32,000 nt of DNA from Promethearchaeum syntrophicum. Its GTDB lineage: Archaea; Asgardarchaeota; Lokiarchaeia; Sigyniarchaeales; Promethearchaeaceae. A program made the translations under genes and the position numbers. The stretch's first letter is position 1, and every line of letters starts with the position of its first letter. Where the stretch lies: contig NZ_CP042905.2 in assembly GCF_008000775.2 (NCBI RefSeq), forward strand, positions 360,001-392,000, given 5' to 3'. Of the stretch, positions 2,875 through 29,533 are shown one piece after another. The notes below the pieces were generated by a model. That model saw only the letters and a list, made by a program, of their open reading frames with translations. It was not told the origin of the DNA and did no database searches.

Positions 2875-3216
2875 TTAACCAACTTTTGAACCTGGGTTTA
2901 CTTTTTCTACATAATTTTCATCGATTTTAAGGAGAACTGCTGTATTATCAACATCAGCTGCAAGAAGCATCCCTTTACTCTCGATCCCCATTATTTTTCT
3001 AGGTTTTAAGTTAGCTAAAACAATAATTTTCGAACCTTTAAGGTCTTCGATACTATACCAATTTTTTATTCCCGAAACTATTTGACGCGGATTTTCTTCA
3101 CCAATATCGACTTGCATTTTTAACAAATTACGTGATTTAGGGACCTCTTCAACCTTTAATATTGTTCCGACTCTTATATCTAAAGTGTTAAAATCCTCAT
3201 ATGATATCGTAGTCAT
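2875..3216 (-). CDS. Trbp111/CsaA-type tRNA-binding (OB-fold) domain protein
   Basis: FNTLDIRVGTILKVEEVPKSRNLLKMQVDIGEE..QIVSGIKNWYSIEDLKGSKIIVLANLKPRKIMGIESKGMLLAA is the classical Trbp111/CsaA/MetRS-C domain. Homology starts at the internal ATG 3216 (MTTISYEDF). The upstream 15 codons (to 3261) are hydrophobic junk overlying a TATA-like tattatataat. Confidence 0.85.
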   Translation of the reverse strand: MTTISYEDFNTLDIRVGTILKVEEVPKSRNLLKMQVDIGEENPRQIVSGIKNWYSIEDLKGSKIIVLANLKPRKIMGIESKGMLLAADVDNTAVLLKIDENYVEKVNPGSKVG

Positions 3217-3273
3217 TTTATAATTATATAATAGGAAAAAAGAACAAAAAATGTTTTTCATTTTATCTGAATT

Positions 3274-14105: not shown

Positions 14106-14933
14106 ATGAATTACTTTGAAGGGATAGAGAAAATGAAGAAAATACATTTGAATAAAAAGAACAAAATTCTGGCAGTGATTGTGGTTCTGCTAGTAGTAGG
14201 TCCTATAACTGTAATTCTTATGTTAATGAATAATTCTCCGAGTCAATCTTATAACGTAATTTCTCAAGATCTCGACTTAGATGAAATGAATAGTTATCCT
14301 CAAGAGATTATTAGAATTAATGAAAATTCTGCAGGTATAGATATAGATATTAAAGTGAAAATCGATAAAAATCGTTTAAAATCTGTTCCATTGGAAAATT
14401 ATACTTATAAGGATGAAATAGCTTATTTCCAAAATCCCTCAAGTAAAATCCAATCGAATTCATCAATAATTGCAGAATTGGCAGAAGAAATTATTGGTGA
14501 AGAACAAGATATCTTAACTATCGTACGTTTAGTTGCAAATTGGACTAGTTCCTCCATTTCATATGATGAATTACTGGCATCTCAAATTTGGAATGGACAA
14601 TCTCAAACGCAAGACGCCTTAACTACATTAGAACTTATGACTGGAACTTGTAGTGAATATGCAAATGTTTTTATCGCAGTTATGAGATATATAGGTGTTC
14701 CTACTCGATTTATTACGGGAAAGAGATTTGAAGGATCTTATCACGCATGGGCGGAAATATATTTATATGAAATAGGATGGATTCCAGTTGATCCCCAACA
14801 TAATGTTATAAATTATTGCTATGAATCAAATGATTTTGTTATTCTTACCTGTGTGAAGCTTTTCGCAGGCTTAGATTTTGTCGATATTGGGATAAAATTA
14901 GCTGATCTTGGAACTATTATAAAAAAGATCTAA
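14106..14933 (+). CDS. membrane-anchored transglutaminase-like (papain-fold Cys-His-Asp) protein
   Basis: N-terminal K-rich segment plus TM (KILAVIVVLLVVGPITVILMLM). Core TGTCSEYANVFIAVMRYIGVPTRFITG...SYHAWAEIYLYEIGWIPVDP is present. An alternative ATG at 14133 (MKKIHLNKK) is equally plausible. Confidence 0.8.
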   Translation: MNYFEGIEKMKKIHLNKKNKILAVIVVLLVVGPITVILMLMNNSPSQSYNVISQDLDLDEMNSYPQEIIRINENSAGIDIDIKVKIDKNRLKSVPLENYTYKDEIAYFQNPSSKIQSNSSIIAELAEEIIGEEQDILTIVRLVANWTSSSISYDELLASQIWNGQSQTQDALTTLELMTGTCSEYANVFIAVMRYIGVPTRFITGKRFEGSYHAWAEIYLYEIGWIPVDPQHNVINYCYESNDFVILTCVKLFAGLDFVDIGIKLADLGTIIKKI

Positions 14934-14989
14934 TAATTATTTCAGTTTCCTAACGTTTCTACATAATTTCTCAGTAATAACAAGCTTAT

Positions 14990-15080
14990 GGATTTATAGT
15001 TTATTCTCAAATTGGTCTTAAGGAATAATTCAAATTTGGACGATAATAACACATGCTATATCCAATTGAAGAAAATTTAG
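14990..15080 (+). pseudogene. remnant of the 3' end of a GNAT paralogue (homologous to 13824..13913)
   Basis: It translates to GFIVYSQIGLKE*FKFGR**HMLYPIEENL*, against GFKVYSQIGFQECCKFNQYIYIPQPNEEK* in the intact gene. The length is the same, the alignment is ungapped, and there are three internal stops. Confidence 0.75.
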
Positions 15081-15125
15081 TCTATTTTGTATGGTTTGCT
15101 TGAGAAATCTCGAAATTTAAAAACA

Positions 15126-15160
15126 CATGGATACATATGGTCCCATATGATCCCATAGGA
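15126..15160 (+). promoter_or_regulatory. phased CATGG/CATATG repeat cluster, copy 2, upstream of the NfeD-like/flotillin pair
   Basis: catggataCATATGGTCCCATATGATCCCATAGGA. Both decamer units carry the same T>C change relative to copy 1. Confidence 0.35.
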
Positions 15161-15270
15161 ATTTTTTTATTGCTGTAAAACTCCTTATTTAATTAGGGCA
15201 TAAGATCACGTGATTATAATCGAAAGTGGACTTTAGGATAATGTATCTTAACCTAAAACGGAGATATAGA

Positions 15271-16146
15271 ATGATCTGGCATGAAATAATATTTTCCTTA
15301 TGCGTAGGCGCTTTAATTTCAGGATTTATTCTAACACTAATACTTTCCATAATGGCTGCTTCCAACTTTTCCAATCAAGAAGCTGGAGATAATGATATTT
15401 CTGAAAATTTTGACGATACAGGGGAATATGGAACAGATGGTGCAGAAACTGACTTTGATGGGGATATCGACTCAGATATTGATGCGGGAGAAATTGATTT
15501 TGATCCTGATTCAGAAATGGATCTTGATTCAGATTTAGACTTTGAAGCAGATACTGAAGTAGAAGTGGAAACTGACCTTGATTCTGAAGTAGAAATTGAC
15601 GAAGATATTCAAATAGAGCCATCGATTGAAAGTGCACTCTCTACAAGTGAAAGTGATTTCATAAATTTTGAAAATCAAACTCCTATGTCATTGATTTTTT
15701 CTTTATATCTTCTATGGTTTGGAGTGATCGGGACTTCTACACATGATTTTTTCTCAAATTCATGGATGTGGCTCTGGTTGATCATAATTTTAATTTGTCC
15801 TGTAATTTTTGTTAAAATCGTTAGTAAATTCTGGAGAAAAATATCTAAAAACACCGCATATCGAGTGAGAGTTGGAAATCAATTATTAGGGCGTGAAGCA
15901 ATGGTAAAAATCCCTGTGTCTTCTGATGGAGGGACCGTATCTGTTAAATCTGCTGATGCTGTTCAACAAATTGGAGTGAAATCTCTACATGAATTATCTT
16001 GGTTCCATTCAGGAATGACTGTTTATATCTGTGAATACAAAGATGGAATGTATTTCGTTGATGATAATCCCGCAAGCGTGAAATTGAAAAAATCTCATCA
16101 TAGGATACAAAATAAGAAAATCAGAATTTCTACAATACAAAAATAA
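15271..16146 (+). CDS. NfeD/YqiJ-like membrane protein with ~80-aa acidic alternating tract and C-terminal OB-like domain
   Basis: One N-terminal TM (IIFSLCVGALISGFILTLILSIMAA), a D/E tract, two TMs, then LLGREAMVKIPVSSDGGTVSVKSADAVQQIGVKS...GMTVYICEYKDGMYFV, which resembles NfeD/YqiJ OB domains. It sits directly upstream of a flotillin, as yuaF-floT and yqiJ-yqiK do. ATG 15271 is preceded by GGAG 7 nt upstream; the ORF opens at GTG 15226. Confidence 0.65.
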   Translation: MIWHEIIFSLCVGALISGFILTLILSIMAASNFSNQEAGDNDISENFDDTGEYGTDGAETDFDGDIDSDIDAGEIDFDPDSEMDLDSDLDFEADTEVEVETDLDSEVEIDEDIQIEPSIESALSTSESDFINFENQTPMSLIFSLYLLWFGVIGTSTHDFFSNSWMWLWLIIILICPVIFVKIVSKFWRKISKNTAYRVRVGNQLLGREAMVKIPVSSDGGTVSVKSADAVQQIGVKSLHELSWFHSGMTVYICEYKDGMYFVDDNPASVKLKKSHHRIQNKKIRISTIQK

Positions 16147-16205
16147 AAAAAAACTTATATATTTCTAATAAAAAAAAAAAAAAAAAAAATAAAGAGAAAA
16201 AAAAA

Positions 16206-17441
16206 ATGATTTATGCTGAATTTAGTTTAGGGGTGGCAGGAATAGTTATTTTAATTGTCTTGTCTATTGTGTTGGTTGCAGTATTCTTTGCTAGCAGATA
16301 CAGAAAGTTCAAAACAAATGAATACGTTATTCATTTAAGGAATGGGAAGGTTGCTTCAGCCGGTAGGGGAGGTAAAATTATCAAATTACCTTTGATCGAT
16401 GAAATTGTAGTAATTCCGACAACCACCAGAAAAACTCTGTTGAATTCTTCAGATAAAATATTGTCTCGTGAATTTCAAGATGTAAAAATAAGCGCAATTC
16501 TTTATTGGCGTGTTTCAGAACCGGAAATATCATTTAATGCTGTTGTATGGGATCCAAGATCACCTGATTATGTTGAAAGGGTACTTAGTACAGCAACGGA
16601 GGCAATTATTCGTACAACTTGTGCTAGTTTAACCGTTGAAACCATTATTTGCGATCGAACTGAAATTATTAAAACAATTACAGATCAATTGTTAAACTTA
16701 ACAAAAGATTGGGGAATTGTAATAGAATCTTTAGAAATTATTGAAGTTCAGGTGCTAGACAAAGATTTGAAAGATAATATGGAAGCTGTTAAGAAGATTC
16801 AAGAACAACAACGCGCGCGTTTAGCCAATGCGGATGCGAAAGAACTGTATAGATTAAGAGAAATCGATGTTAGTCGGCAATCAGAATTAGCAGAAAAAGA
16901 AATGGCAATTCAAATTCAACAACAAGAATTAACTCGTGCTGAAATTGAAGCCGAAGCTTACAAAAAAGCAACTCTCATCAGAGCAGAAGCAGATGCAGAT
17001 GCTATCAAAATGAGAATTCTCGCTGAGAAGGAAGCTGAAGCTATTGGAATTCGTTTAAAAATGACTGCTGAGGCCGAAGGATTTCAAAAGCAAGTTGATG
17101 CAATAAATTCTGGTGATCAAAACTTCCTCACCATGAAATTAATCGAACAAATGCCCGAGATTTACAAAAATATTTCACCTGATAAAATGATTGTAATGGG
17201 AGAGGGAAATAAAGGGTTCAATTCTATTTTAGAAAGCATCCTTCCTTTAATGCAGATTCTCCCCGAATTCAATAAACAAATCAATGGTGTATCAAAAGAT
17301 TCTGTAGAGAAGATTAAAAGGGATAAAGATGTTACCGGTGTGGAATTTGAAGATTCGGAAATCGAAAACTTCCAAAAAATCATGCAGATAGAACAACCTA
17401 TTAAAAATAATAAGAGTAAGGGCATAAAGGTAAAAAAATAA
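16206..17441 (+). CDS. flotillin-like SPFH/Band-7 protein
   Basis: N-terminal TM hairpin (GVAGIVILIVLSIVLVAVFFA), SPFH domain, and an E/A-rich flotillin coiled coil (AEIEAEAYKKATLIRAEADADAIKMRILAEKEAEAIGIRLKMTAEAEGF). Confidence 0.9.
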   Translation: MIYAEFSLGVAGIVILIVLSIVLVAVFFASRYRKFKTNEYVIHLRNGKVASAGRGGKIIKLPLIDEIVVIPTTTRKTLLNSSDKILSREFQDVKISAILYWRVSEPEISFNAVVWDPRSPDYVERVLSTATEAIIRTTCASLTVETIICDRTEIIKTITDQLLNLTKDWGIVIESLEIIEVQVLDKDLKDNMEAVKKIQEQQRARLANADAKELYRLREIDVSRQSELAEKEMAIQIQQQELTRAEIEAEAYKKATLIRAEADADAIKMRILAEKEAEAIGIRLKMTAEAEGFQKQVDAINSGDQNFLTMKLIEQMPEIYKNISPDKMIVMGEGNKGFNSILESILPLMQILPEFNKQINGVSKDSVEKIKRDKDVTGVEFEDSEIENFQKIMQIEQPIKNNKSKGIKVKK

Positions 17442-17603
17442 GATGAAAAATAGTATATTATGCTATTATAAATATACAAGAGCATCTGAAGATTATGTTA
17501 CTAAAAGCTGAATTTATTTAAAATTCAAGGTTGGGAATTTGGTTCTACAATTTCAAATTCGGACCATAATCTGAAAGGGTTTCTTTTCCAGTTCAAATCC
17601 TTA

Positions 17604-17627
17604 TTTTTTATCGTTTTTTAGATTTTT
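17604..17627 (+). terminator. oligo-T tracts (T6, T6, T5), candidate archaeal terminator for the NfeD-flotillin unit
   Basis: ttattttttatcgttttttagattttt is the first T5+ run after the flotillin stop, ~160 nt downstream. This is weak evidence in AT-rich DNA. Confidence 0.3.
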
Positions 17628-17672
17628 CTTCCATTCTTTACAAAGAGTGAAGACCTTAGACAAAAAGATAGA

Positions 17673-17680
17673 TTTATTAA
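17673..17680 (+). promoter_or_regulatory. TATA-box-like element upstream of the giant ORF
   Basis: tttattaa lies ~31-38 nt upstream of ATG 17711. Confidence 0.25.
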
Positions 17681-17710
17681 GAAGTTGTTGAATATTTAAT
17701 AAGACTACTA

Positions 17711-20700
17711 ATGAATAATTCCCAAGAAGATAGCCAAAAATTTTTAAAAGTTACTAATCAATTAACAGATTTTGCCTTCATTTTAATTTTCATGATTGCA
17801 CTTCCCGGTATTATTGGAGTAATTGCTGGAGGAATTGCAATGTTATTTGTTGAAGAAGCATTTTTAATGGGAGAATTTTCACTTGGCACTTTCTTAGCTG
17901 GAATAACCTTTTCACTCCCAATTTTCTATTTACTCTTCTTAAAAACTCGCAAAAAGAAAATATGGTATGAAATCATTCCAATAAGTTATAATAAAGAACT
18001 CACAATTGGTATTTTAATCATTTATGTGCCAACTATTCTGACTTCCTTAATTTTTTATCTCTTCTCTTTAATGATGAATTATTCTAGTTTTGCATTCGAA
18101 TTTCAGTTTTTTATTCTCGCAATTCAGCCTTTAGAATCATTATTTTTCTGTAGATTTTTTAAAATCTTATTCCCAATAAGTGAATCTGTAAAAAAAACAG
18201 GGAATATTCCTGAAATATCAGCCAAACTCAATAAAGAATCTCTTCAAAAAGTAATTTTTAAAGAGTTTGTGATTAAAATAATTTTTGATATTATATGCTT
18301 AGTTTTATCCAATTCAATATTAATAATAATTCTAACAAATGTTATCGGGATTATCCTATATTTTACAACTAAAGATTTAATTTTTAAAGTAGGCAAATTA
18401 AAAACTCGTTTATCTGAATTTAAATTAATTCTAAATCTAAAATTCATTGGGTTTCTGTTAATAATTCAAAGTCTAATCCAGTTTTGGATATGCATATTTG
18501 AACCCAACTTAAATTTAGGTCTTTACATTATAATTACAGCCTTATTAACCATAAAAATATCATTTATCTTATTATATCAATACAGTAAACATCTTTTTAT
18601 AAATTTTCAAATTCGTGTGAAATGGTTTATTGGATTCATGATTAATGATATAATTACTATCGCGATTAATATTTTAGGTGTTATATATATCGTGGTTGAA
18701 GGTTTCAATGTTGAACCTTTTTGGGTATTTTCTGAGTGGTATTTATTAGGGATTTTTATTGTTTTTCTAATAGAAAATATTATTGAAAGACATTTTCATC
18801 TTTCATATAAATTACTTTCTACGTTATTCAACATGATTCAACTAATTGCAATTTATGCGATTATAGCTTTTCTATTAATTGATGTCGAATTATATCTCCA
18901 AATACTTATCTTCTCAGTATTATCAATTTCTATCCCAATAATTTTACATGAAATTAAAGCCATTTCAAAAAAAACTCAAATCATTATTCAAAATATCCTA
19001 TATATCCTAATTTTCTATGAAATTGGAATTTATTTTGCAGTTTTTACAACTGAAAATAATTTATTTATTACTGATTCTCAAATTTTCAATTACCTCTTCT
19101 TTTTATCTCTTAGCTCTCTAAGTTCGCTTTATCGGCTTTATTTTATAAAAATAAGAGGCTTTCAAACCAAATTTTTCTCACAATTAATTCTAATATTTCT
19201 ATTCATTAGCTTTTTTGGAATTTTTCAATTGATTGGAGGTGGCTTAATCGGAATTTCTGTTTTCCTTGTCGAATTTTTTGGAGATATTAATTCTACATTT
19301 CCAATATTTTTCCCAACTGGTTTACTCTCAAATTCATTAGAGAACATATCAAGTATATACAATCAAATTGGAGAAATCGCATTGGATTCGACATTTATTA
19401 TCAAATCAACAAACGGAATAGCAAGTGTATTGAATATTGCAGTTTCAGGTCTTCTATCCTTAGTAGGTTATAATATAATAATTCATTTGCATGAGAATTT
19501 TAAAGTTCTTTCCCCTTATGTTTTAAAATTTAATCAAATATTTAATCGCAGTCTGATTGGATTGTTAGCTTGTATAGGAATATTAGTAATGTTTCAGTCA
19601 ATTTCTGGAATAATTTTGTGTTTGATGTTCATTACTTACTTCAGTGTTTATATTTATGACTCGATTTATGAATTTAGGGAAGAAATACAAAAACCCTTGC
19701 GAAAATCAAAACTACAAGTAAAAAGTATTCTTTTTATCATAAACGCTATTGTGTCTTTGGCATTGTTTCTTTTCATAGGATTAGAATTCTTAGGTTTAGA
19801 TTTTACACTTTCATTTACAATTGCTTTAATTGCACTTTATCTTTATATTAACCTACTTCCTTCGATTAATTCGATTTTAAATCGCACATATAATGAGAAG
19901 AAGCTGTTAAATCTCTTAAATGCGTGCATTTTATTCCTAATTGGGATATTCTTAAATCCCTCAATTAATTTCTTGCTGTCTAGTTATATTAGTCCAGATC
20001 TTGAATTGGGAATCCTCAATTGGATATTAATTTCTGGTCTTTTTATATCACTCTTTTCGTTTTTATCTTTAAAACAGCTTAAATCAGGAAATTATGTTTT
20101 AGGAAAAATCTATGAAATTTCAAACATGCTATTACAATTTTTCTTTTGGTTTATGGCATCTGGATTTATTATATTTAACACATACAAAGTTCTTAATTAT
20201 CTCTTATTAATAATATCAATTAATTTACTTTTATTATCCGTTATATTTAAAATCAATAGTATATTAACTTTTAATAATATCTATCGTGAAGTATATTTAA
20301 CATGGATATACATGATGAGTATTACATGGGAATTAGGATTTGTTACTCTAATTTCGTCTTTTATTATTGCTTTTAATTATATTAATTTAGCTTTTCTTAT
20401 CTTCTTGGGATTACTAATATTAGGAATTTTAACTTACAGAAATATCAAGCAATATATCTCTATTTATCCTGCAAAAAAAGAACAGATTATAAAATTACTC
20501 GATTTTATACATTTGTTTAATCTAATTGTTACTATTGGAATTTTTCAAACTTTCTTTAGTTTTTTTTCTTCTTATCCCGTATTTTTACCACTCTCTTTCA
20601 TGTTAACATCAATTCTTACAAGTATAGTTTTTCATATATCAAAGATTGTTAAAAAATACCTTCCGGATAAAATCGCTATTATAATTGATGTTATATTATT

Positions 20701-23700
20701 ACTCACATTATCAACTTCTAGCATCATCTCAGTTCATTCGATATTTGAAAACTACCTTAATATTCAACTAATTTTTGATTACTCAATAATATTCTCTCTG
20801 GGAGTGGTTATAATTGGCCTAGCTACATTACTTTTAATTGCCTACTATTTAGAAAAGAGAAAAATAATCAATACTCTCACATGGAATTATATAAATTTTG
20901 TAATAATTCAATTGGAAATATTAATTAGCTTTTCGTTTATAATGTATTCCGAATTTGAATGGGTCATTAATAATTTAAATAGCGAATGGGATCAACTTTC
21001 AACTCCAATCACGTATTTAATTCTTGGAGGTATGATATTAGGGCTTTATCTTATATATAAATCATTTTTAAAGTTAAAATATTTAAATGAACATGCCAAG
21101 TTAACTTTACTACTCCTAATTCAAAAAAATTTTACCAGAATTATAGGAACTATAGTTATTTCAATATTTCCGATTATTTTCTTTAACTATGAATTAATAG
21201 GATTTTCAATAGCCTTCTTCTTGATTACTTTTGTATTAGTGTATAGTTTTAAGGAATTTCAAAATACATTTCCGGCTAATCAAAAATTAAATGTTTATTC
21301 GGATATAATCCTGATTTCTAATTTATTGTCAATTTTACTTTTAATTTATTCTATCAGCTCACATTTTATTGGATTGATAATTACTGAATCATTAATATTA
21401 TCCTTCATTACTTTTTGGATATTTCTCTACTTCCTTCCAATTCTTATAAAATATATCCCAGCAAGAATAAAACACGTGATTAATGCAATATTTATGCCTG
21501 TGTTTGCAGTATTAGTAAATATTTCTGTTTATTTGGAAATTTTGAAATTTGAGATTGATCTACTTCAAGATCATACTTTAATTTCAATTCTAATAGGATT
21601 AATACCTCTATTTGCTTCAATTTTATTCGCACTCAACCAATTACAAAAAGGAAAATACCTCAAAGATAAATTACATAAAAAAATTCATTTTCTATTTAAT
21701 ATGGGAATTTATTATGATTTATATGCAATCATAGTATCAGTGATGTTGATATATGTGATAGGATCAAGTAATCTAAATGTATACAGAATTTTATTTCATA
21801 CATCTTGGCCACTTTTGGGATTATTTTTTATTCTGAAGAGAATTGAAATGAAGAATTTTTATTCTGAGATTTCACATTTAAAACTAATTTTAAAGACCCA
21901 AATATTAATGTTTTGGGGGATTTCAACACTGGGTTTGCTCATAATTATAAATTATATATTTGTATTCAATCCTTTAGTCATTGCAATTACAATTTTTATT
22001 GAGACTTTTGTTTTATTTTATTCCATTCTATTATTTGATGAAATTTTGCCAAAATTACACAAATTCTTACTAATAATGAAGGAAATTTTGATTTATATTA
22101 ACCTAATTTCAATTTCATCCGTGATTTACTTTACTAGTAATGAACTATTAGGTTTAATTCCAACATTTTCATTTTTCATAGTGTTAATTATTGTTTCTGG
22201 ATTACTTTTCTCGATTCCTGTTTATAAAACAGGAACAATCCAAAAATCTCTTTATGAGATCATTTCGTTTCTTATTTTTAGTAGTTCAATTTTATTAGCA
22301 ATATCAATCAATCAAATGAATTTTCTTCCAGGAACATCTCCAACATATGCCTATTTTGGACTTCTTCTAATTCCTATTCTTGCCTCTTTTTTTAGCATCT
22401 TTCTCTTTAGTAAAAATACAATATCTAAAAGAATTGCTCGGAAGCTATATCAAAAAAATGAAATATTATTACTCATAAATGTCGCAATTCTAATTGCTTT
22501 ACTATCCAACGAAAATGGATTGAATAATTTTTCTCTGTTAATTTCTTCTTTAATTGTTACTGCTCTACTGGTTGTAGATTATTATACAATATTTCTTTTA
22601 ACAGATAAAAAAACTATTATCTTATCATTTTTCAGCGCATTATTATATAATTTAGTAGGAATTACCTTAGCCATTTCTTTACCTTTATTTGAAACCTTCG
22701 ATAACCCTATATTTATATTTATTCTTGTCCAATTGCCATTTCTGTTTGGAATATTTTATTTTGTGGATTGGGCAAACCGGAGAATTCAATCCGCTACAAA
22801 TTTGAAAGATTTGAACAAAAGACCATTTTCTAAATTATCAAACACTAAGAAAAATCATATTAATCAATCAGATGAACCTTTATTAATAGATAACAATGAA
22901 GAACCTTCTAATAATCCCTCCAAATTTGCCCCAACTACAATTATGAACCGGTTTGCACAATTTATTTCTGATAAATGGATAATCCTAGAAGTTTGTTTTA
23001 TATTTATTACACTCGGTCTAAATCTTTATTTAGGCATCAATATACTTTTAATTTCAGAAGAAATATTTACTCCCCTTCAAATCTTGCTAATTTGTTCTTT
23101 GATTGTTTCAGTTATTACCATATATCAACCTCATTCTCACAAGTTTTTAATTTATTACATTCAAACTCTTGTAACCCTTGGATTAAATTATATAATTTAT
23201 GACTCAACCTTATTCATTAGTGAGTTTCAGATACTTTTCGGTATAATTGCCGCAATTTTAATAAACAGATTGGCTACCAGACATTTTCCTATTAATAATC
23301 TTATTAAATACATTCAAAATTTCCTACTCTTAGGAATTTACTATTTCATTATTCATATCTATGGGTTTACTTTATCTTGGGAATTATTGATTAGCTGTAT
23401 TCTTTTCAGTATTTTTACCAGCCGATCTTATAAAAACTTAACCTTTAATTCATTCAAAGTTTGGGCTTTTTCCTATTTTACTTATGATATTTTAATCAAC
23501 TATTTATCTCAAACAGAATATCCCTTAATCCCTATTTTTGCAGCTTGTGCGATCGGTTTAACTTGGCAATGGATAGTGTTTTTAAAAGATTCTAAATGGT
23601 CAAACTCAATCATAAAATCGTTATTGGGATATATTGTAACAATTTCATGGATTTTCAATTATGCATATTTATTTATCATTAAAAATGAAATAATGGGATT

Positions 23701-26700
23701 AATTTCACCCCCAATTATGGCATTTGTAGTATTATTGTTGCTATTTTTAAAGAAAAAGATCATTATATTCCAGAAAGAAAAATTTTTAGATATTTTAATC
23801 TTAGGAGGTACATTTTTCTTTATCTATACTCTTGGACGTTATTATTTATTCGAAAACTACTACTTTTCTGTTGCATTGGCTTTAACCTTAGCTGGTGCAA
23901 TTTGTGGGTTCTTATTTATATTCATATTAGAATTTTTAAATGCGAAAATAAGAAAAGAACTATCCTTGGCTTTCTTTACTTGTGCTTCTTTATTAGCGGG
24001 AGTATTCACATTCCTAATTTTAATGGAACCTGTTATTTTTACTGAAACTGCTTGGGAAGTTGCTTTACCTATTGGATTTGACATAGCTCTCTTATTGTTT
24101 TATATTGGCATTGGGATATACAAACGTTCCTTTACAAAAATTTGGTCTGTTGGAGTATATGCTTGGATTCTTGCTCCTATTATTAATTTTATAATGATAT
24201 CACGTTTAATACGAGGAATTGATTCTGTTTCATCCGCTTTAGAAGTGTTCAATGTTTCTATTGATGGATCAATTATTCTATCCATAATAATCTGTACACT
24301 AATGTACTTGCCTATAATAATTACAAGATTATTGGAAAATTTAAATAAAATAATCTATATTTTCTGGCTAGAATTACTCGTATTTACTACTTGGGGGGCT
24401 GTAAATCTATTTCCACAAAGTATTCTTTTACAAATCCCATTCATATTTCTAATTGGATTAATATTATTTGTTCCCATATTTTATTACTATAAGCATTGGG
24501 CTTCTTTAAGTCTTATTTGGCCTTTAATTGCGGCTACTAATATAGCATTTGTCCTTAATTTTGTTGCTTTTCAACCAGAGTGGGAGATACCAATAGGAAT
24601 TTTAATCGGTGGTTTCTATATTTTGACTTTAGGATATTTCCCGAATATAAAGAAATCTAAATTAGCTAGTTCGTTAATTATTATTTTTGGGTATTTCACA
24701 ATTTTAACTAGCATTTTCTGGTTATTATATACATTTGTTATTATCATTTTTGACGATATAATTATTTCTGTGAATATTACTCTCATCGTAATATCTTTTG
24801 TTTTACTTACTGGAAAATACTTTAAACTGCGTGATTATTTAATAAAAATAGGGCACTCACTAATAGTAATTATAAATCTAGCAATTTTACTAGCAAGAAC
24901 ATTTTATATAATAGGAAATCATGAATACAAAACTTTTGGAATTTTCCTTGGAATCGCATTTGCTTTTGGAACAACTCTATCATTTCAAGCCCGGAAATAT
25001 TTACCCAAAATATTATTTGAATTAATCTGGTTTGGAATGGCAATATTCTTTGGGTTATCATTATTTGAATTGGGGTTAACAATTTTTGATATAGGGGGTT
25101 GGGCTTCTACAGGAATTTTAGTAATAGTAGCAACTTTGATTTACTTCCCAATAATAAGATCTTATTTAGGGTCCGTTTTTGTTTTACTTGTTAGTGGCAT
25201 CTCAATGGTTATAATGGAACTACTGATTTTAGCTTCTCCATTCGTATCTATGAATCAACCTTTATTGTTCTTGGATGTTCTATTTACATTGGAATTAACT
25301 TATATCTATTTTAGCAGTAAATCAAAAATTGGGTTACTTAAAGATAAAACTACGAATTTTGAAATAGCTTCTATTATTTGGGTTATTTTATCTACATTAT
25401 TTTCTATAACTTTCATTTTTATGATAAATATATATTTCCCAGAAGAAATTTTTTCAAAAATTTTAATCTTCTTAAACACTTTCGCACTACAGAATCTATT
25501 AACAACCTATTCCATAAGACGAAATGAGCTCTTTACACGATATAGAATCATTCAAAAAATCATTCCAATTTTCCACTTCTTACTGATATTTACAATTTAT
25601 CTTTCCACTTCAATATTTTGTGCAATTAAAATACCAGTTAATAGCATAATTGAAATATCCGAACAAAATTTTGCTATTGAAACTTTATATCGTTTTGCAA
25701 TTCTGTTCTTAATTCTATTTATCGAATTTTATGGAATTGATCGTAAAATTGTAAAATTAGTATCAAATAAAATTCGTTATCAATTAGATTGGATAAGTTT
25801 CTTCGCTTTTTCTGCATGTTTAACATTTGGGCTCTTTTTAAACATACATATATGGGAGGTCTCCTTATTAATTTGGTGTATTTTATTTTTTATCACTATA
25901 TTTCTCAATCAAAAAGCAGGTAATAAGATATTTCCTGAAATTCTTAAAATTGTAAATGTACTGTTAATAAATACTGCCATATTTAGTTATATTTGGAAAA
26001 TAAATAATATAACTGATAGCATCAGTAATTTTGAATTTGATTTGCTCTTATTAAATATCGCATTTAATATTGCACTAATATATCTTTTTATGAGATTGAA
26101 AATAATCAATCGAAAAGCGATTAAAGTCATTTTCTCGATTTTATCAATTACAATTGCATTATTTTGTGAGGAAATATCCAGAATTTATTTAATGAAACAT
26201 TTGATTCTTAATATTGCCGTATTCTTTTTCGTCTTTGCAATATTGAACACTTTTAACATAAAACGTGCAATATTAATTTATTTCTATTGGATTTTATTAG
26301 CATTCTCAATCTCCACCTTTTTGATGGAATTCATTCCATTTTTATACCATATGACAACCATTAATTATATTATTACCCTTTCGTTTATATTCGGTTTGCA
26401 ATTATCACTTTTATTCTATCTATTAGCAAATTCCTCCCCAAATTCCAACCTTGAGAATAATGATAAAAAAATTGGTATTTCCATAGTTCATCCAATATTG
26501 GATTCTTCTGAAATTGCTCACAAGATTTTTGTAACTTGGATGATTATTGAAGCATTCATTGTTTCAATTTCTATTGCTCAATTTTGGAATTATTTATTTA
26601 TTGATCTAATGTTTTCACATAAAGATTTTACAGGAGTAGAAAAATTTTTCTTATGGATTTCTATTATCCCGATTATTTTTGCATTCATGTTTTACCATTT

Positions 26701-29533
26701 AAATAAGTATATGCAAAAAAATGAAGTTTGGAAAGATAAAAATTATGTTTTTATTGGAAATTCTGAATTAGGAATAGTTTTTAAAGCCTTATCTGTAATT
26801 TTTCTCAATTTATCTTTATTTTATCATCTTTGGTATGTATTTGATATATATTCAAGCTTAATCATTGCAGAATTTGGACCAATTCTTCTTAATTTGACAT
26901 TAAATCTATTTATTCTTTATAGTTTTATTAGAAAAAACCAATTTTCAAGAAAATGGCAATTTTTAACTTCAATTGCTCTATCGGTTGCTGTTTCTGGAGT
27001 GATTGAAGAATATTTAAGAGTTTTTTCAAATATTAGCCCATTAATGAGTGTTGCAATAATTTTATCCATTATATGTATTTTAAACACAAATAAAATTAAT
27101 ATCACATCTTTAGTCTATAGCTATTGGACAACTATTTCTTTCTGTTTGGCTATTTTCTTATATTCCTTAACAGATTGGATGTGGGGAGGGTTTGGATTAT
27201 CATTCTCATCAGTATTATGGTTTAGTTTCTTATTTGGATTATTTAATACTCTTATATATTATCTTCTAGCACATAGAACTTTAATCAAATTGGAATTCTT
27301 TCAAAAATATTCTCCATATCTTAGAATAATTGAAGGTTTCGATTATGAAATCAAATCAATTGATAATGATGTAGATAAAAAAGATAGTCTCATTTCAAAG
27401 GATAAGCCAAGAACTAAATCAAAATCTGCGTTTTTACTTCTATTTGGACATGAAGATCAAATACAAGCAAAGCAAATTTTCTCAATTTGGTTATTTATTG
27501 AGCTAATAATTTTAAGTTTCTCCCTTGCACAAGGATGGGCTTTCGTTTATAATAATAATATCCTATATAATGTCATATCTGATGATAATTTCATTCAATA
27601 TTTAATTCAAGCTACATTAGTTATTCTCTTATTATCAATTGGATTGGCTATAATTTTCCAATATATTAGATCAAATAATTTATGGGTTGAAAATAAGGAA
27701 TTTAACAAGAACCTAATTTTTGCCTCGAATTTTAATGGAATTTGCTTATATTTTTCTCTCCCCCTTGCTAGTACGTTCTATATACATTATACATTGATGA
27801 ATTTATTTGGAAATACTCTTGTAATTGCATTGATCGATATTTTTGCCTTTACAATATTAGCTTTTATTTGTATTTATTTGATTGATATTAAGAAAACTAA
27901 AATAATCAAGGAGAAACTTGCAAATTCATTAACAATTGGAATAATAATTTTGCTTTCTGCAGACATAAGTTTTATATGGAGTTATTTCACCGAATTAATT
28001 CCAATAGGAATAATAATTTTTGTTTGTATTCCTTATGTATTTAAATTTTTAAACTTAGTCAAAGAAGATATTCTTGGAAAACTTCTTTTTATTTCCAATT
28101 TACTCATTTCAATAGCAATTATGGTTCAAATTGATATATTTTTATTTGGTGTATTTGATTGGATGATTGCGCTTGGATTATTATTCCTAGTTCTCCAAAT
28201 TTTTATTGAATTAGAAATTCGATTAAAATTTTTATCTCCTATTGAAAAATTAATTAAATTTCTAAGAAAAATTTCATGGTTCCTCTTATCTATATGTGTG
28301 AGTTCCTTAACTATATTTTATAATATAGAAGATTTTACAATAATTCGTTTAATTATTGGGATTTTAATTCTTACTTTAATGATGTTTTACGAGAATTATC
28401 TATTATTTAGTGAAGAGAAAATGCAATTAAAATATTCCAAAATAAAAGATATTCTAGGAATGTTTTGTTATATTGAGATCTTCTCACTTCTTTCTACAAT
28501 CATAATTCCACTCAATCTTGCTGTTGAAATAACTGAAACGAAACCAATTTTATTTATGAGGTTACTACTAGTAACAGAACTTTTCGTAATTATATTTATT
28601 CTTTGTCTAATTGATAAGATAAAACTACATTTCATTCCTGATAAGGTTATAAAACCCTTGGATTTAACCTTATTCTTAACTACGATAATTTTAGGAGCAG
28701 TTGACCTCACTTATTTTGCTGTCCTAAATATTGATTTATCTCCTTCAACTACTCCTGGTCCTGGAATTCCTATAGAACAAAAAATGATTCCACTTATATT
28801 CGTTTCTATAATTATTGGAATAGTTCTAATTATTAAATTTAAAAATCGCAAGATTAATCAAATTATTTATTTTGTTCTACTAATTGAGATATTTATATAC
28901 ATTTTGGGTCTCAATCAACCATTAATTCTTATCCCAACAACAATCATTGCGCTTTTACTTTATCCTTTCATATTCTTCCTAGAACAAATGGTCATCCTAT
29001 TGAAATTAATAGGAAAATGGATACTGAATTTAATGATTAAAATTAAAAATTTCTTTAGTTTCTTGTGGAATAAAATTGTTTCTTTTTATTATAAACACAA
29101 AAGATTAGTATTTAGCGTACTGGGTTTAATCCTTGCTGCTGTAAGTTTTATTGTTATTTTAAATTTAGCGATTGAACAAATATCGTTCGCAATTAACGGA
29201 TTTATAAGTGGATTAATCTTTTTGATAGTATATTATCCAGTCTCGCCAGAAAGAGAAGAAGATACTAAACCAAGAAATTTCGCATTAAAGATATTATATA
29301 GAACTTTAATAATGATTTGTTTAGTTGGGTCATCGAGTGCACTGATTCCCTCTGAAGCATGGATTTATACATTGTTTCTCTTAGCATTCTTTGGATATGT
29401 TATTTGGGTAGTTCGACGCAGCGAAGAACTTTATAATCTTCCTATATATTGGCGATTTATGAGTTCATTAGGGGCTATCATTGATTTTATTGTAACTGCA
29501 ATATTATTGATACTCTATTTAGATATAATTTAA
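17711..29533 (+). CDS. giant polytopic integral membrane protein (3,940 aa), no recognisable domain
   Basis: Single uninterrupted 11,823-nt ORF in AT-rich DNA. No other-frame ORF across the span exceeds 80 aa. The sequence is nearly continuous 18-28-residue I/L/F-rich stretches separated by short K/R/N-rich loops. The longest hydrophilic loops are only ~60-70 aa. Confidence 0.9.
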   Translation: MNNSQEDSQKFLKVTNQLTDFAFILIFMIALPGIIGVIAGGIAMLFVEEAFLMGEFSLGTFLAGITFSLPIFYLLFLKTRKKKIWYEIIPISYNKELTIGILIIYVPTILTSLIFYLFSLMMNYSSFAFEFQFFILAIQPLESLFFCRFFKILFPISESVKKTGNIPEISAKLNKESLQKVIFKEFVIKIIFDIICLVLSNSILIIILTNVIGIILYFTTKDLIFKVGKLKTRLSEFKLILNLKFIGFLLIIQSLIQFWICIFEPNLNLGLYIIITALLTIKISFILLYQYSKHLFINFQIRVKWFIGFMINDIITIAINILGVIYIVVEGFNVEPFWVFSEWYLLGIFIVFLIENIIERHFHLSYKLLSTLFNMIQLIAIYAIIAFLLIDVELYLQILIFSVLSISIPIILHEIKAISKKTQIIIQNILYILIFYEIGIYFAVFTTENNLFITDSQIFNYLFFLSLSSLSSLYRLYFIKIRGFQTKFFSQLILIFLFISFFGIFQLIGGGLIGISVFLVEFFGDINSTFPIFFPTGLLSNSLENISSIYNQIGEIALDSTFIIKSTNGIASVLNIAVSGLLSLVGYNIIIHLHENFKVLSPYVLKFNQIFNRSLIGLLACIGILVMFQSISGIILCLMFITYFSVYIYDSIYEFREEIQKPLRKSKLQVKSILFIINAIVSLALFLFIGLEFLGLDFTLSFTIALIALYLYINLLPSINSILNRTYNEKKLLNLLNACILFLIGIFLNPSINFLLSSYISPDLELGILNWILISGLFISLFSFLSLKQLKSGNYVLGKIYEISNMLLQFFFWFMASGFIIFNTYKVLNYLLLIISINLLLLSVIFKINSILTFNNIYREVYLTWIYMMSITWELGFVTLISSFIIAFNYINLAFLIFLGLLILGILTYRNIKQYISIYPAKKEQIIKLLDFIHLFNLIVTIGIFQTFFSFFSSYPVFLPLSFMLTSILTSIVFHISKIVKKYLPDKIAIIIDVILLLTLSTSSIISVHSIFENYLNIQLIFDYSIIFSLGVVIIGLATLLLIAYYLEKRKIINTLTWNYINFVIIQLEILISFSFIMYSEFEWVINNLNSEWDQLSTPITYLILGGMILGLYLIYKSFLKLKYLNEHAKLTLLLLIQKNFTRIIGTIVISIFPIIFFNYELIGFSIAFFLITFVLVYSFKEFQNTFPANQKLNVYSDIILISNLLSILLLIYSISSHFIGLIITESLILSFITFWIFLYFLPILIKYIPARIKHVINAIFMPVFAVLVNISVYLEILKFEIDLLQDHTLISILIGLIPLFASILFALNQLQKGKYLKDKLHKKIHFLFNMGIYYDLYAIIVSVMLIYVIGSSNLNVYRILFHTSWPLLGLFFILKRIEMKNFYSEISHLKLILKTQILMFWGISTLGLLIIINYIFVFNPLVIAITIFIETFVLFYSILLFDEILPKLHKFLLIMKEILIYINLISISSVIYFTSNELLGLIPTFSFFIVLIIVSGLLFSIPVYKTGTIQKSLYEIISFLIFSSSILLAISINQMNFLPGTSPTYAYFGLLLIPILASFFSIFLFSKNTISKRIARKLYQKNEILLLINVAILIALLSNENGLNNFSLLISSLIVTALLVVDYYTIFLLTDKKTIILSFFSALLYNLVGITLAISLPLFETFDNPIFIFILVQLPFLFGIFYFVDWANRRIQSATNLKDLNKRPFSKLSNTKKNHINQSDEPLLIDNNEEPSNNPSKFAPTTIMNRFAQFISDKWIILEVCFIFITLGLNLYLGINILLISEEIFTPLQILLICSLIVSVITIYQPHSHKFLIYYIQTLVTLGLNYIIYDSTLFISEFQILFGIIAAILINRLATRHFPINNLIKYIQNFLLLGIYYFIIHIYGFTLSWELLISCILFSIFTSRSYKNLTFNSFKVWAFSYFTYDILINYLSQTEYPLIPIFAACAIGLTWQWIVFLKDSKWSNSIIKSLLGYIVTISWIFNYAYLFIIKNEIMGLISPPIMAFVVLLLLFLKKKIIIFQKEKFLDILILGGTFFFIYTLGRYYLFENYYFSVALALTLAGAICGFLFIFILEFLNAKIRKELSLAFFTCASLLAGVFTFLILMEPVIFTETAWEVALPIGFDIALLLFYIGIGIYKRSFTKIWSVGVYAWILAPIINFIMISRLIRGIDSVSSALEVFNVSIDGSIILSIIICTLMYLPIIITRLLENLNKIIYIFWLELLVFTTWGAVNLFPQSILLQIPFIFLIGLILFVPIFYYYKHWASLSLIWPLIAATNIAFVLNFVAFQPEWEIPIGILIGGFYILTLGYFPNIKKSKLASSLIIIFGYFTILTSIFWLLYTFVIIIFDDIIISVNITLIVISFVLLTGKYFKLRDYLIKIGHSLIVIINLAILLARTFYIIGNHEYKTFGIFLGIAFAFGTTLSFQARKYLPKILFELIWFGMAIFFGLSLFELGLTIFDIGGWASTGILVIVATLIYFPIIRSYLGSVFVLLVSGISMVIMELLILASPFVSMNQPLLFLDVLFTLELTYIYFSSKSKIGLLKDKTTNFEIASIIWVILSTLFSITFIFMINIYFPEEIFSKILIFLNTFALQNLLTTYSIRRNELFTRYRIIQKIIPIFHFLLIFTIYLSTSIFCAIKIPVNSIIEISEQNFAIETLYRFAILFLILFIEFYGIDRKIVKLVSNKIRYQLDWISFFAFSACLTFGLFLNIHIWEVSLLIWCILFFITIFLNQKAGNKIFPEILKIVNVLLINTAIFSYIWKINNITDSISNFEFDLLLLNIAFNIALIYLFMRLKIINRKAIKVIFSILSITIALFCEEISRIYLMKHLILNIAVFFFVFAILNTFNIKRAILIYFYWILLAFSISTFLMEFIPFLYHMTTINYIITLSFIFGLQLSLLFYLLANSSPNSNLENNDKKIGISIVHPILDSSEIAHKIFVTWMIIEAFIVSISIAQFWNYLFIDLMFSHKDFTGVEKFFLWISIIPIIFAFMFYHLNKYMQKNEVWKDKNYVFIGNSELGIVFKALSVIFLNLSLFYHLWYVFDIYSSLIIAEFGPILLNLTLNLFILYSFIRKNQFSRKWQFLTSIALSVAVSGVIEEYLRVFSNISPLMSVAIILSIICILNTNKINITSLVYSYWTTISFCLAIFLYSLTDWMWGGFGLSFSSVLWFSFLFGLFNTLIYYLLAHRTLIKLEFFQKYSPYLRIIEGFDYEIKSIDNDVDKKDSLISKDKPRTKSKSAFLLLFGHEDQIQAKQIFSIWLFIELIILSFSLAQGWAFVYNNNILYNVISDDNFIQYLIQATLVILLLSIGLAIIFQYIRSNNLWVENKEFNKNLIFASNFNGICLYFSLPLASTFYIHYTLMNLFGNTLVIALIDIFAFTILAFICIYLIDIKKTKIIKEKLANSLTIGIIILLSADISFIWSYFTELIPIGIIIFVCIPYVFKFLNLVKEDILGKLLFISNLLISIAIMVQIDIFLFGVFDWMIALGLLFLVLQIFIELEIRLKFLSPIEKLIKFLRKISWFLLSICVSSLTIFYNIEDFTIIRLIIGILILTLMMFYENYLLFSEEKMQLKYSKIKDILGMFCYIEIFSLLSTIIIPLNLAVEITETKPILFMRLLLVTELFVIIFILCLIDKIKLHFIPDKVIKPLDLTLFLTTIILGAVDLTYFAVLNIDLSPSTTPGPGIPIEQKMIPLIFVSIIIGIVLIIKFKNRKINQIIYFVLLIEIFIYILGLNQPLILIPTTIIALLLYPFIFFLEQMVILLKLIGKWILNLMIKIKNFFSFLWNKIVSFYYKHKRLVFSVLGLILAAVSFIVILNLAIEQISFAINGFISGLIFLIVYYPVSPEREEDTKPRNFALKILYRTLIMICLVGSSSALIPSEAWIYTLFLLAFFGYVIWVVRRSEELYNLPIYWRFMSSLGAIIDFIVTAILLILYLDII
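26240..28060 (+). repeat. protein-level tandem module duplication inside the giant ORF (module A 26240-27076, module B 27077-~28060)
   Basis: The two modules align by eye: ILNTFNIKRAILIYFYW/ILNTNKINITSLVYSYW; LLFYLLA/LIYYLLA; AHKIFVTWMIIEAFIVSISIAQFW/AKQIFSIWLFIELIILSFSLAQGW; KNEVWKDKNYVF/NNLWVENKEFNK; LLNLTLNLFILYSFIRKNQFSRKWQ/LIDIFAFTILAFICIYLIDIKKTKIIKEK. Module B carries a longer hydrophilic loop. The DNA is too diverged to see a repeat. Confidence 0.7.

Follow-up and report, generated by a model that had tools for sequence, protein, structure and literature searches.

The giant gene and its locus

The window, a stretch of 32,000 nucleotides from the closed genome of Promethearchaeum syntrophicum MK-D1, contains DSAG12_00898 (QEE15075.1/WP_147661999.1; positions 17711..29533 of the window, + strand), a gene that starts with an ATG codon and encodes a protein of 3,940 aa and approximately 440 kDa, with approximately 126 predicted transmembrane (TM) helices, which is predicted to lie wholly within the membrane. 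Based on the composition of the gene itself (T 41.7%, A 32.3%), approximately 300 stops would be expected in 3,940 codons, and the log10 probability of encountering none is approximately −135, bearing out the original prediction that this frame is not a chance ORF. The remaining 5 frames over the same span contain 185 to 488 stops each, their longest stop-to-stop stretch being 118 aa, and the only other ORF listed there has a length of exactly 80 aa, in agreement with the earlier claim that none is longer. The protein is composed of 17.8% Ile, 16.0% Leu, and 10.4% Phe, with a GRAVY of +1.01. Because the 16 other ORFs in the window are far less hydrophobic (GRAVY −0.93 to +0.05, with the 3 residues accounting for 17% to 30%), the excess is specific to this gene rather than a bias of the genome, as had been proposed. 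Independent assemblies yield the same gene length. The gene is genuine, occurs in a single copy, and stands alone.

The intergenic region upstream of the gene (17442..17710, + strand) likely comprises the promoter and the 5′ region, with 2 conserved TATA-like A/T boxes located just 5′ of the ATG. This spacer is approximately 70% identical to that of the orthologous locus, exceeding the conservation of synonymous sites within the gene (pS 0.47). No tRNA or Rfam family was found in the 32-kb window, including the spacer. In an available RNA-seq table, DSAG12_00898 has an RPKM of 152, the third lowest of 116 sampled genes (median 244), although this value is weak evidence, since the whole dataset spans only 3.4-fold (RPKM 109 to 375). 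Neither the locus tag nor the accessions were found to be mentioned in paper texts.

The neighbors of DSAG12_00898 are housekeeping genes, with no integrase or ParA among them. The association with flotillin and amidohydrolase genes, raised in the original prediction as potentially conserved, turned out to be local. Adjacency to flotillin is retained only in MK-D1 and in a 73%-identical relative, the whole neighborhood of which is colinear, and is absent from the 42% and 28% homologs as well as from the second of the 2 family subgroups (P0008, Lokiarchaeum ossiferum, and subgroup-2 loci), whereas the amidohydrolase is already missing from the locus of the 73%-identical relative. Thus, an adjacency across lineages of the kind expected of an SPFH/flotillin (NfeD-like) operon partner was not observed, and no gene partner conserved across the family was found. 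Loci of subgroup 2 display strong synteny of their own, involving genes for an aminotransferase, GH4, a Liv ABC system, and an MFS protein, which looks like colinearity within a clade rather than a functional link.

Membrane topology and modular architecture

Counting TM segments in a protein of such composition is not straightforward. Dynamic programming with Hessa deltaG values was unstable and undercounted, returning 1 to 54 segments depending on the parameters, whereas the Kyte-Doolittle scale yielded 83 to 119 segments but could not serve as independent evidence, because shuffling the composition gave approximately 90. Both counts were therefore replaced by an analysis of charge periodicity combined with secondary structure from AF2 models. 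The autocorrelation of K/R residues has a peak at a lag of 62 to 65 aa (z approximately 7 against block shuffles) and a trough at 35 to 40 aa (z approximately −4.5), and the cross-correlation between K/R and D/E peaks at a lag of 30 (z approximately 4), placing the acidic residues half a period away from the basic ones. The 56 K/R clusters, with a median spacing of 66 aa, thus correspond to approximately 126 TM helices, as compared with the order of 100 segments in a protein embedded almost entirely in the membrane that had been extrapolated earlier. In AF2 secondary structure, an 821-aa stretch contains 27 helices of 18 aa or longer, and the 371-aa core described below has 12 TM helices, or approximately 30 aa per helix; according to the model and the charge analysis, the helices are approximately 20 to 25 aa long, with charged loops on both faces. 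A K/R period of 57 to 65 aa was also detected in 8 other family members. DSAG12_00898 is a near-continuous positive-inside array of approximately 63 helical hairpins joined by short loops on both faces.

The longest hydrophilic loops, expected at approximately 22770–22978 and 27272–27480, were located at nearly the same positions and leave no space into which a soluble globular domain could fit, again as anticipated. Loop 1 (22766..22978, + strand; aa 1686–1756, 71 aa) is a low-complexity segment rich in K/R and N and coincides with the window of lowest identity, whereas the low-complexity loop 2 (27272..27475, + strand; aa 3188–3255, 68 aa) is an insertion in the second B repeat relative to the first (see below). 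In hydrophobicity, the family (GRAVY 0.87 to 1.19) equals bona fide permeases encoded by the same genomes (0.96 to 1.12). By contrast, Gly and Ala together make up 4.6% to 8.7% of the family proteins as opposed to 13% to 18.5% of the Liv, MFS, and ABC-3 permeases of these genomes, and Ile, Leu, Phe, and aromatic residues are enriched. Transporter bundles, which are tightly packed and flexible, do not typically have such a composition.

Complete members share the same plan, with a conserved N-terminal module, a variable repeat arm, a conserved core of approximately 12 TM helices, a second variable arm, and a conserved C-terminal tail. The N-terminal module (17711..18190, + strand; aa 1 to approximately 160) is 81% to 87% identical among close orthologs and homologous across both subgroups (hhalign probability 93.4%, E 2.6e-7; decoy 3.1%). 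The C-terminal tail (28829..29530, + strand; aa approximately 3707–3940) contains a YPF[IV]F.LE motif, a long basic amphipathic helix, an SPE-containing loop, an [IV].WRF motif, and the final TM helix, and its conservation between subgroup 1 and subgroup 2 is also evident from hhalign (99.1%, E 1.2e-18 over 226 columns; decoy 27%).

The extended conserved center (23708..25915, + strand; aa approximately 2000–2735), the sole part of the protein that HMMER matches between the subgroups, includes the most conserved windows of the protein and those with the lowest dN/dS (0.11). Within it lies the family-wide core (24008..25120, + strand; aa 2100–2470), modeled by AF2 with a pLDDT of 80.9 and a pTM of 0.62 as 12 TM helices and a short external beta-hairpin loop. 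The charges of the core loops alternate, with 11 K/R and 1 D/E in the odd loops and 1 K/R and 9 D/E in the even ones. Across 20 aligned sequences, the invariant residues (W46, W53, P57, N60, G87, P102, W120, W129, F135, P156, W164, and W171, in core numbering) are exclusively Trp, Pro, Asn, Gly, and Phe; no Asp, Glu, Lys, Arg, or His is ever invariant and, hence, the core carries no catalytic or ion-binding signature. One helix, which includes the invariant P57 and N60, is kinked or discontinuous, and 2 further near-invariant Asn residues are located in TM helices. The external loop displays a G[IV]D motif in 16 of the 20 sequences, with the Asp replaced by Lys or Asn in some members.

Plain self-BLAST of DSAG12_00898 returned the identity match alone, and repeats were therefore sought by comparison of tiles. 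Arm 1 (19460..22585, + strand) consists of 4 tandem A repeats of approximately 260 aa and 8 TM helices each (aa 584–844, 839–1108, 1109–1369, and 1368–1625), detected at offsets of 259 to 270, 526, and 786 aa by tile BLASTP and hhalign (decoys ≤16%) and recovered as 4 copies by an iterated HMM. The orthologs P0007 and P0008 lack approximately 254 aa in this arm, about 1 A unit. Arm 2 (25919..27709, + strand) comprises 2 tandem B repeats (aa 2737–3015 and 3016–3333; BLASTP 63 bits, E 5e-15; hhalign 99.8%), between which the offset shifts from 279 to 318 aa owing to the loop 2 insertion; the corresponding HMM found 2 copies in DSAG12_00898 and 5 in the L. ossiferum homolog. Recent arrays specific to other members repeat every 134, 179, 252, or 298 aa, with identities reaching 78%. 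The A repeat is linked to the C-side unit of subgroup 2 with 85% probability, whereas neither the B repeat nor the N-side unit of subgroup 2 was found to be related to the repeats of the other subgroup, and the 134-aa unit of subgroup 2 was not detected in DSAG12_00898. Units A, B, C, and D yielded no sub-repeats, their halves and quarters matching with at most 27% probability. Collectively, the idea of a repeat-built protein stands for approximately 42% of its length, covered by the 4 A repeats (approximately 262 aa) and the 2 B repeats (approximately 280 to 318 aa).

Family, distribution, and relation to known proteins

The protein is archaeal, in keeping with the original prediction, and has homologs. 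Five near-full-length colinear orthologs (3,926 to 3,945 aa, 63% to 80% identity) align almost without indels. Over the whole gene, dN/dS amounts to 0.20; it stays below 0.32 in each 500-codon block and falls to 0.11 in the core, the same as in the flotillin control. The colinearity, the near absence of indels, and the low dN/dS throughout identify DSAG12_00898 as a real gene under selection. The family includes 28 representatives among 1.84 billion clusters, or approximately 100 clusters at 90% identity, and an exhaustive search with the core profile matched exclusively family members of equal hydrophobicity. Complete members are all giants of approximately 2,500 to 4,900 aa encoded by single ORFs (2,719 to 4,905 aa in more than 30 genomes). 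They share the conserved core with its motif set (aa 2100–2470 of DSAG12_00898), the N-terminal module, the C-terminal tail, a K/R periodicity of approximately 60 aa over the whole length, and a size of at least approximately 2,500 aa. These lokiarchaeial giant hairpin-array membrane proteins constitute a new family.

All independently named sources of family members are Lokiarchaeia, including both cultured species, P. syntrophicum and L. ossiferum, and the sequences available so far point to a small family restricted to Lokiarchaeia-type Asgard archaea. An Asgard-wide distribution was considered and rejected as unproven, because the Hod, Thor, and Hermod labels all come from a single submission series and the respective MAGs are interspersed with Loki-labeled ones at 45% to 76% identity, with common synteny and flanks of 29% to 34% GC.

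Consistent with the claim that DSAG12_00898 contains no recognizable domain and belongs to no characterized family, the whole protein matched no Pfam family at E≤1, no NCBIfam, PHROGs, or PADLOC model, and, in a phmmer search, no PDB sequence. The core, too, is an orphan: a Foldseek search of its model against 350,542 PDB chains yielded no match at E≤0.001 (best E 2.0, TM ≤0.26), BFVD contained no neighbor, and neither profiles nor this fold search linked it to known transporter superfamilies (MFS, APC, RND, and ABC permeases). An AF2 model of 821 aa based on 9 sequences reached a pLDDT of only 48.8 and was left out of the fold search. The top nonsignificant matches were alpha-solenoids (TPR, 14-3-3, HEAT, SNAP, and designed helical repeats) rather than transporter bundles. 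The main text of a TCDB-based survey of the MK-D1 transportome does not mention DSAG12_00898. The conserved core has no known fold.

Piezo channels, previously named as the closest conceptual analog, contain 38 TM helices per chain, built from 4-TM units, together with soluble cap, beam, and anchor parts, which is, to our knowledge, the published record for polytopy. Like Piezo1 and Piezo2, DSAG12_00898 is very large and joins tandem TM-repeat units to a more conserved module. However, it has approximately 126 predicted TM helices, its units span approximately 8 to 10 TM helices (260 to 318 aa) with no detected sub-unit, none of its loops exceeds 71 aa, and it is archaeal rather than eukaryotic, any channel function being putative. 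The Pfam search included PIEZO, Piezo_RRas_bdg, and related domains (none at E≤1), phmmer matched no Piezo sequence in the PDB, and no Piezo was present among the top 50 Foldseek matches of the core model, a comparison confined to the core. The analogy is thus conceptual only and does not extend to a 4-TM unit, a domain, or a fold. If the estimate of approximately 126 helices is right, the architecture is the most polytopic on record by a wide margin, with, as far as we know, approximately 3 times as many TM helices as any characterized protein, raising the question of how so many helices are inserted co-translationally and folded.

Other known systems offer partial likenesses. As in Reticulon, REEP, and Yop1, it would be hydrophobic hairpins in the bilayer, not soluble domains, that bring about any effect on the membrane, and a link to tubular membranes of high curvature is conceivable; however, these proteins are small, carry 2 wedge-like hairpins, and oligomerize, whereas DSAG12_00898 has approximately 63 full-span hairpins with charged loops on both faces and matches neither the Reticulon nor the TB2/DP1/HVA22 domain of Pfam. 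With alpha-solenoid proteins (TPR, HEAT, 14-3-3, and designed), it shares antiparallel helix pairs, putatively stacked, and variation in repeat copy number, but these are soluble and their likeness to the core is not significant (E≥2, TM ≤0.26). A membrane-organizing role akin to that of SPFH/flotillin scaffolds is conceivable, and the genes are adjacent in MK-D1 and 1 close relative, but the proteins are not related in sequence.

A possible role in the plane of the membrane

We tentatively propose, giving this reading somewhat less than an even chance, that DSAG12_00898 acts in the membrane plane as a structural or mechanical element with arms of tunable length. Membrane scaffolding, curvature, and a mechanical function had been named in the original prediction as pure speculation. 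The protein might take the shape of a long ribbon or plate in which TM hairpins are stacked, a "membrane-embedded solenoid," where the fixed N-terminal, central, and C-terminal modules would make specific contacts, with each other or with other copies, and the repeat arms would serve as spacers that determine how large, stiff, or curved a membrane patch is. The arms resemble structural repeat proteins in that their copy number varies by lineage while the ends and the center remain fixed. The hairpin topology along the whole length, the low Gly and Ala content, the absence of invariant charged residues from the core, the lack of matches to known families, the alpha-solenoid character of the top, albeit nonsignificant, matches of the core, the absence of a conserved gene partner, and the restriction to Lokiarchaeia-type genomes are in line with this proposal. 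We do not think that DSAG12_00898 is an enzyme or a solute transporter. The low transcript level, within the narrow range of that dataset, is less than might be expected of a bulk structural protein.

Membrane protrusions are formed by cultured Lokiarchaeia (Imachi et al. 2020, PMC7015854). Possible sites of action are their necks, branches, and blebs, and a conserved all-membrane protein of approximately 440 kDa is a candidate for organizing or shaping the lokiarchaeial membrane; the link between DSAG12_00898 and protrusions is circumstantial. In a more specific and unlikely version of the proposal, the single-chain hairpin solenoid would constitute an intrinsic membrane skeleton and a new class of membrane machinery, the ends and center of which lock copies or arms together, while the arms set the radius or stiffness of the tubular protrusions and necks with which Lokiarchaeia contact partner cells. 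If true, membranes would be shaped by protein alone in a prokaryotic lineage, the one closest to eukaryotes. Asgard archaea are the closest known prokaryotic relatives of eukaryotes, the Lokiarchaeia include both cultured representatives, and their protrusions are central to models of eukaryogenesis. With the gene present in P. syntrophicum as well as L. ossiferum, these ideas are directly testable.

The foremost alternative, which we regard as improbable, is a Piezo-like mechanosensor, channel, or transporter, in which the core of approximately 12 TM helices, possibly oligomeric, would form a pore or translocation path and the arms would act as membrane-embedded blades sensing or transmitting tension or curvature. 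A conserved module with long TM-repeat arms does recall the Piezo pore and blades in outline, the transcript level suits a low-copy sensor, and the broken helix with P57 and N60, the near-invariant Asn residues, and the conserved external beta-hairpin are features also encountered at functional sites of channels and transporters. Yet Pfam, NCBIfam, and PDB sequences yielded no Piezo, channel, or transporter domain, the core has no fold neighbor and no invariant charged residue, the Gly and Ala content is far below that of real permeases, and no 4-TM sub-unit was detected in repeats of approximately 8 to 10 TM helices. Furthermore, since no loop is longer than 71 aa, a soluble cap or gating domain is lacking.

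The conserved external loop of the 12-TM core, with its G[IV]D motif, would also be compatible with a membrane-embedded enzyme, such as a GT-C-like glycosyl or lipid transferase, an envelope polymerase or ligase, or a lipid-modifying enzyme, with the core as the active site and the arms as accessories; enzymes of this kind frequently diverge too far to be recognized by Pfam. We nevertheless consider this explanation quite unlikely, given that the loop Asp is present in only approximately 16 of the 20 aligned sequences and acidic residues are nowhere invariant, as opposed to the invariant acidic motif in the first external loop of GT-C and Wzy proteins. Among the 350,542 PDB chains, Foldseek matched neither GT-C nor Wzy structures nor any other membrane enzyme, envelope-biosynthesis genes are not conserved nearby, and the presence of approximately 110 accessory TM helices would lack a ready explanation.

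The modular repeat organization could, in principle, reflect a polyprotein or a fusion of many small membrane proteins that are cleaved or work as independent units. This is very unlikely: stand-alone homologs of the core are missing from the 1.84 billion representatives, in which matches shorter than 400 aa resemble fragments at contig ends, every complete gene, across more than 30 genomes, is a single ORF, and no protease or cleavage signature was found.

Asgard mobile elements known as aloposons encode giant proteins of 3,000 to 6,000 aa with little or no annotation, among which Otus and Ephialtes are paired in tandem within elements integrated at tRNA genes, downstream of a ParA/MinD gene; Asgard proteins of more than 3,000 aa were catalogued in the same study (Wu et al. 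2022, PMC8813620). DSAG12_00898 is set apart from them by the described context only, as a single gene rather than a tandem pair, among housekeeping neighbors and with no tRNA, integrase, or ParA. Together with the closed genome, the equal length in independent assemblies, the absence of relatives from 2.9 million viral contigs and of PHROGs or PADLOC matches, and purifying selection along the whole gene, this effectively refutes an artifact, a decaying ORF, or a selfish giant gene, for which the low transcript level might have spoken. Giant "hypothetical proteins" dismissed as low-complexity can thus be conserved genes under selection.

The giant gene and its expression

The giant gene DSAG12_00898 (QEE15075.1; annotated 'hypothetical protein') occupies positions 17711-29533 on the plus strand as an uninterrupted frame of 3,940 codons, and is carried on the closed 4.3-Mb chromosome of Promethearchaeum syntrophicum MK-D1. 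At the T (42%) and A (32%) contents of the ORF, some 300 stop codons would be expected by chance (log10 P approximately −135), and the 5 other frames across the ORF contain 185 to 488 stops, with the sole alternative ORF listed there being exactly 80 aa long. Five orthologues of 3,926 to 3,945 aa from independent metagenome assemblies (63% to 80% identity) are full-length and colinear, with indels nearly absent, and comparison with a 73%-identical orthologue yielded an overall dN/dS of 0.20 (Nei-Gojobori), with all 500-codon blocks below 0.32 and a value of 0.11 at aa 2001-2500, compared with 0.11 for the adjoining flotillin gene. Colinearity and dN/dS thus exclude a chance, chimeric or decaying ORF, bearing out the original prediction that the frame did not arise by chance.

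The encoded protein is rich in Ile (17.8%), Leu (16.0%) and Phe (10.4%), with a GRAVY of +1.01; the 16 remaining ORFs in the window range from −0.93 to +0.05, which confines the bias to this gene, as had been proposed. Its 2 longest hydrophilic stretches (aa 1686-1756 and aa 3188-3255) agree exactly with the loops originally located. The gene also stands compositionally apart from its surroundings (GC 26.0% vs 29% to 36%), with a coding strand strongly enriched in T and with GC and AT skews that are negative throughout. This block, which could by mistake pass for a foreign island, is accounted for by Phe, Ile and Leu codon usage.

In Supplementary Table 3 of Imachi et al. 2020 (PMC7015854), the gene has an RPKM of 152, the third lowest among 116 consecutive neighbouring genes (109 to 375, median 244). 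The values for SecY and ribosomal protein L21e in the same table are no higher than 345 to 375, approximately 1.5 times the median, and this very narrow dynamic range makes the table a weak guide to truly expressed genes. DSAG12_00898 is probably transcribed, but this dataset has little discriminating power.

Family distribution and repeat organization

An exhaustive HMMER profile search of 1.84 billion cluster representatives with the conserved centre recovered 28 proteins at E ≤ 0.001, word-indexed searches yielded 9 clusters of the P. syntrophicum type (subgroup 1) and 98 clusters of a second subgroup (subgroup 2), and a pattern scan revealed 53 giant-gene loci among GTDB species representatives. 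All complete family genes are giant, encoding 3,144 to 4,905 aa in subgroup 1 (the longest from Ca. Lokiarchaeum ossiferum) and 2,719 to 3,331 aa in 29 complete subgroup 2 genes read from GTDB loci; subgroup 2 clusters in the protein search span approximately 2,400 to 3,750 aa, and GRAVY is 1.03 to 1.23. No relatives were found in 2.9 million viral contigs. The names given by independent submitters are all Loki (Lokiarchaeota/Lokiarchaeia, Loki_b31/b32 and the Loki's Castle LCGC14 metagenome). The Hodarchaeota, Thorarchaeota and Hermodarchaeota labels stem from a single submission series (JBHL.../ACF... tags; loci L004-L056, proteins P0048, P0066 and P0071), in which MAGs so labelled are interspersed with Loki-labelled ones, with 45% to 76% giant-gene identity, common gene order and flank GC of 29% to 34%. 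These class labels look unreliable, and we therefore claim the family for Lokiarchaeia-type Asgard archaea only. One 1,892-aa member, P0129, carries the label 'Candidatus Nanopelagicaceae bacterium' (an actinobacterial MAG), which is probably explained by wrong binning of a Lokiarchaeial contig and not by horizontal transfer.

Three parts are homologous family-wide, namely, the N-terminal ~150 aa (93%, E 3e-7), the centre at aa ~2000-2735 (HMMER E 1e-29 to 1e-39) and the C-terminal ~230 aa (99.1%, E 1e-18). The family plan thus consists of constant ends and a constant centre, linked by 2 expandable repeat arms. Tile comparison, in which reversed-profile decoys always remained at ≤16% probability, and HMMs identified 4 A units of ~260 aa each (aa 584-1625) and 2 B units of 279 to 318 aa (aa 2737-3333). 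Hence, the idea of a repeat-built protein holds for the ~42% of its length in which tandem repeats are demonstrable; no smaller sub-unit was detectable inside the units. Repeat copy number differs among lineages: in the homologues P0007/8, ~254 aa are missing, roughly equal to one A unit, the L. ossiferum homologue has 5 B units, and the arrays found on either side of the centre in other members are recent duplications of their own, with periods of 134, 179, 252 and 298 aa and copies reaching 78% identity. A remote relationship links repeat A with the C-side repeat of subgroup 2 (hhalign 85% vs 0.7% for the decoy).

Membrane topology and possible function

Hydropathy-based counts of 83 to 119 transmembrane (TM) segments are largely a composition effect, because a shuffled sequence yields ~90. 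Composition-independent evidence for TM topology is provided by charge periodicity: the K/R density autocorrelation peaks at a lag of 62 to 65 aa (z ~7 against block-shuffled controls) and falls to a minimum at 35 to 40 aa, and the D/E density peaks half a period off K/R (lag 30, z ~4). The K/R period is present in 7 of the 8 windows of ~490 aa and in 8 other family members. The 56 K/R clusters, with a median spacing of 66 aa (IQR 58-72), predict ~126 TM helices, in line with the order of 100 segments originally extrapolated, and an equal helix density (~30 aa per helix) follows from AF2 secondary structure. In the AF2 model, alternate loops of the confidently modelled core (aa 2100-2470) carry 11 K/R and 1 D/E versus 1 K/R and 9 D/E, a predicted arrangement of textbook positive-inside type. 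Invariant among 20 aligned core sequences are 6 Trp and 3 Pro residues along with Asn, Gly and Phe, and none is Asp, Glu, Lys, Arg or His. In overall hydrophobicity, the protein matches Liv, MFS and ABC-3 permeases encoded by the same genomes; Gly+Ala content is 4.6% to 8.7% in the family versus 13% to 18.5% in real permeases from these genomes.

Piezo channels, the analogue originally suggested, have been described as holding the largest known number of TM domains (PMC10477517); the giant protein would carry about 3 times as many helices and displays none of the Piezo membership features tested. Asgard proteins of >3,000 aa have been catalogued and mobile 'aloposon' giant genes described (Wu et al. 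2022; PMC8813620), but DSAG12_00898 has none of the context features of the latter, and the literature text searched mentions neither its locus tag nor its accessions. On these grounds, we rate its architecture as categorically new.

Devoid of a soluble domain, the protein must act in or at the bilayer. We tentatively favour, at somewhat less than even chances, an in-plane structural or mechanical element, in which TM hairpins would stack into a ribbon or plate and the arms would be tunable in length. Arm length that varies under purifying selection, constant modules at the ends and centre, invariant residues of packing type, a composition atypical of transporters, and the absence of partners and catalytic signatures all point in this direction. 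The main rival, a Piezo-like sensor or channel with the conserved core as its active part, better accommodates the low transcript level and the kinked helix in which Pro and Asn are invariant; we consider it unlikely. Less likely still are an enzymatic core, which appears improbable, a polyprotein, for which the chances are slim, and an artefact or mobile gene, which is barely credible; the remaining probability falls to something not yet imagined.

Gene neighbourhoods and the upstream region

Comparison of loci from both subgroups revealed no family-wide conserved neighbour gene. Flotillin adjoins the giant gene only where the whole neighbourhood is colinear, and the flotillin synteny considered originally is not conserved beyond the colinear relative. 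The 42%-identical homologue (P0008, locus L003) is flanked by a cupin gene and a Znu-type ABC operon, the L. ossiferum gene follows a His operon, and subgroup 2 genes have GH4 on one side and a Liv ABC operon on the other. In 23 to 30 of ~40 subgroup 2 loci (L005-L055), the giant gene is preceded on its own strand by genes for a GH4 glycosidase and an aminotransferase and followed by those for a complete Liv-type ABC transporter, which we read as clade colinearity. Judging by matching annotations and order in Imachi's table, MK-D1 appears to carry the gene series of the L003 flanks, uninterrupted, as DSAG12_00871-00879, ~25 genes upstream of the giant gene, which would thus have shifted its place against a conserved backbone.

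The spacer of 269 nt that precedes the giant gene (17442-17710) shows ~70% identity to its orthologue in a relative with 47% synonymous-site divergence, and contains 2 conserved A/T-rich TATA-like boxes just 5' of the ATG and several conserved G/C-containing blocks (e.g., TCAAGGTTGG, TTCAAATTCGG and TCTTTTCCAG). It has no Rfam or tRNA match, and the 53-aa gene called in the upstream spacer of the relative corresponds to only a 22-aa ORF in MK-D1. Directly upstream, a same-strand cluster (14106-17441) encodes a transglutaminase-like protein, a 306-aa protein and an SPFH/flotillin protein. The 306-aa protein has 2 predicted TM segments, no Pfam domain and an acidic/Ser-rich low-complexity stretch weakly matching SD-repeat adhesin models. 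The cluster, which is kept in the close relative, may represent a membrane-microdomain module.
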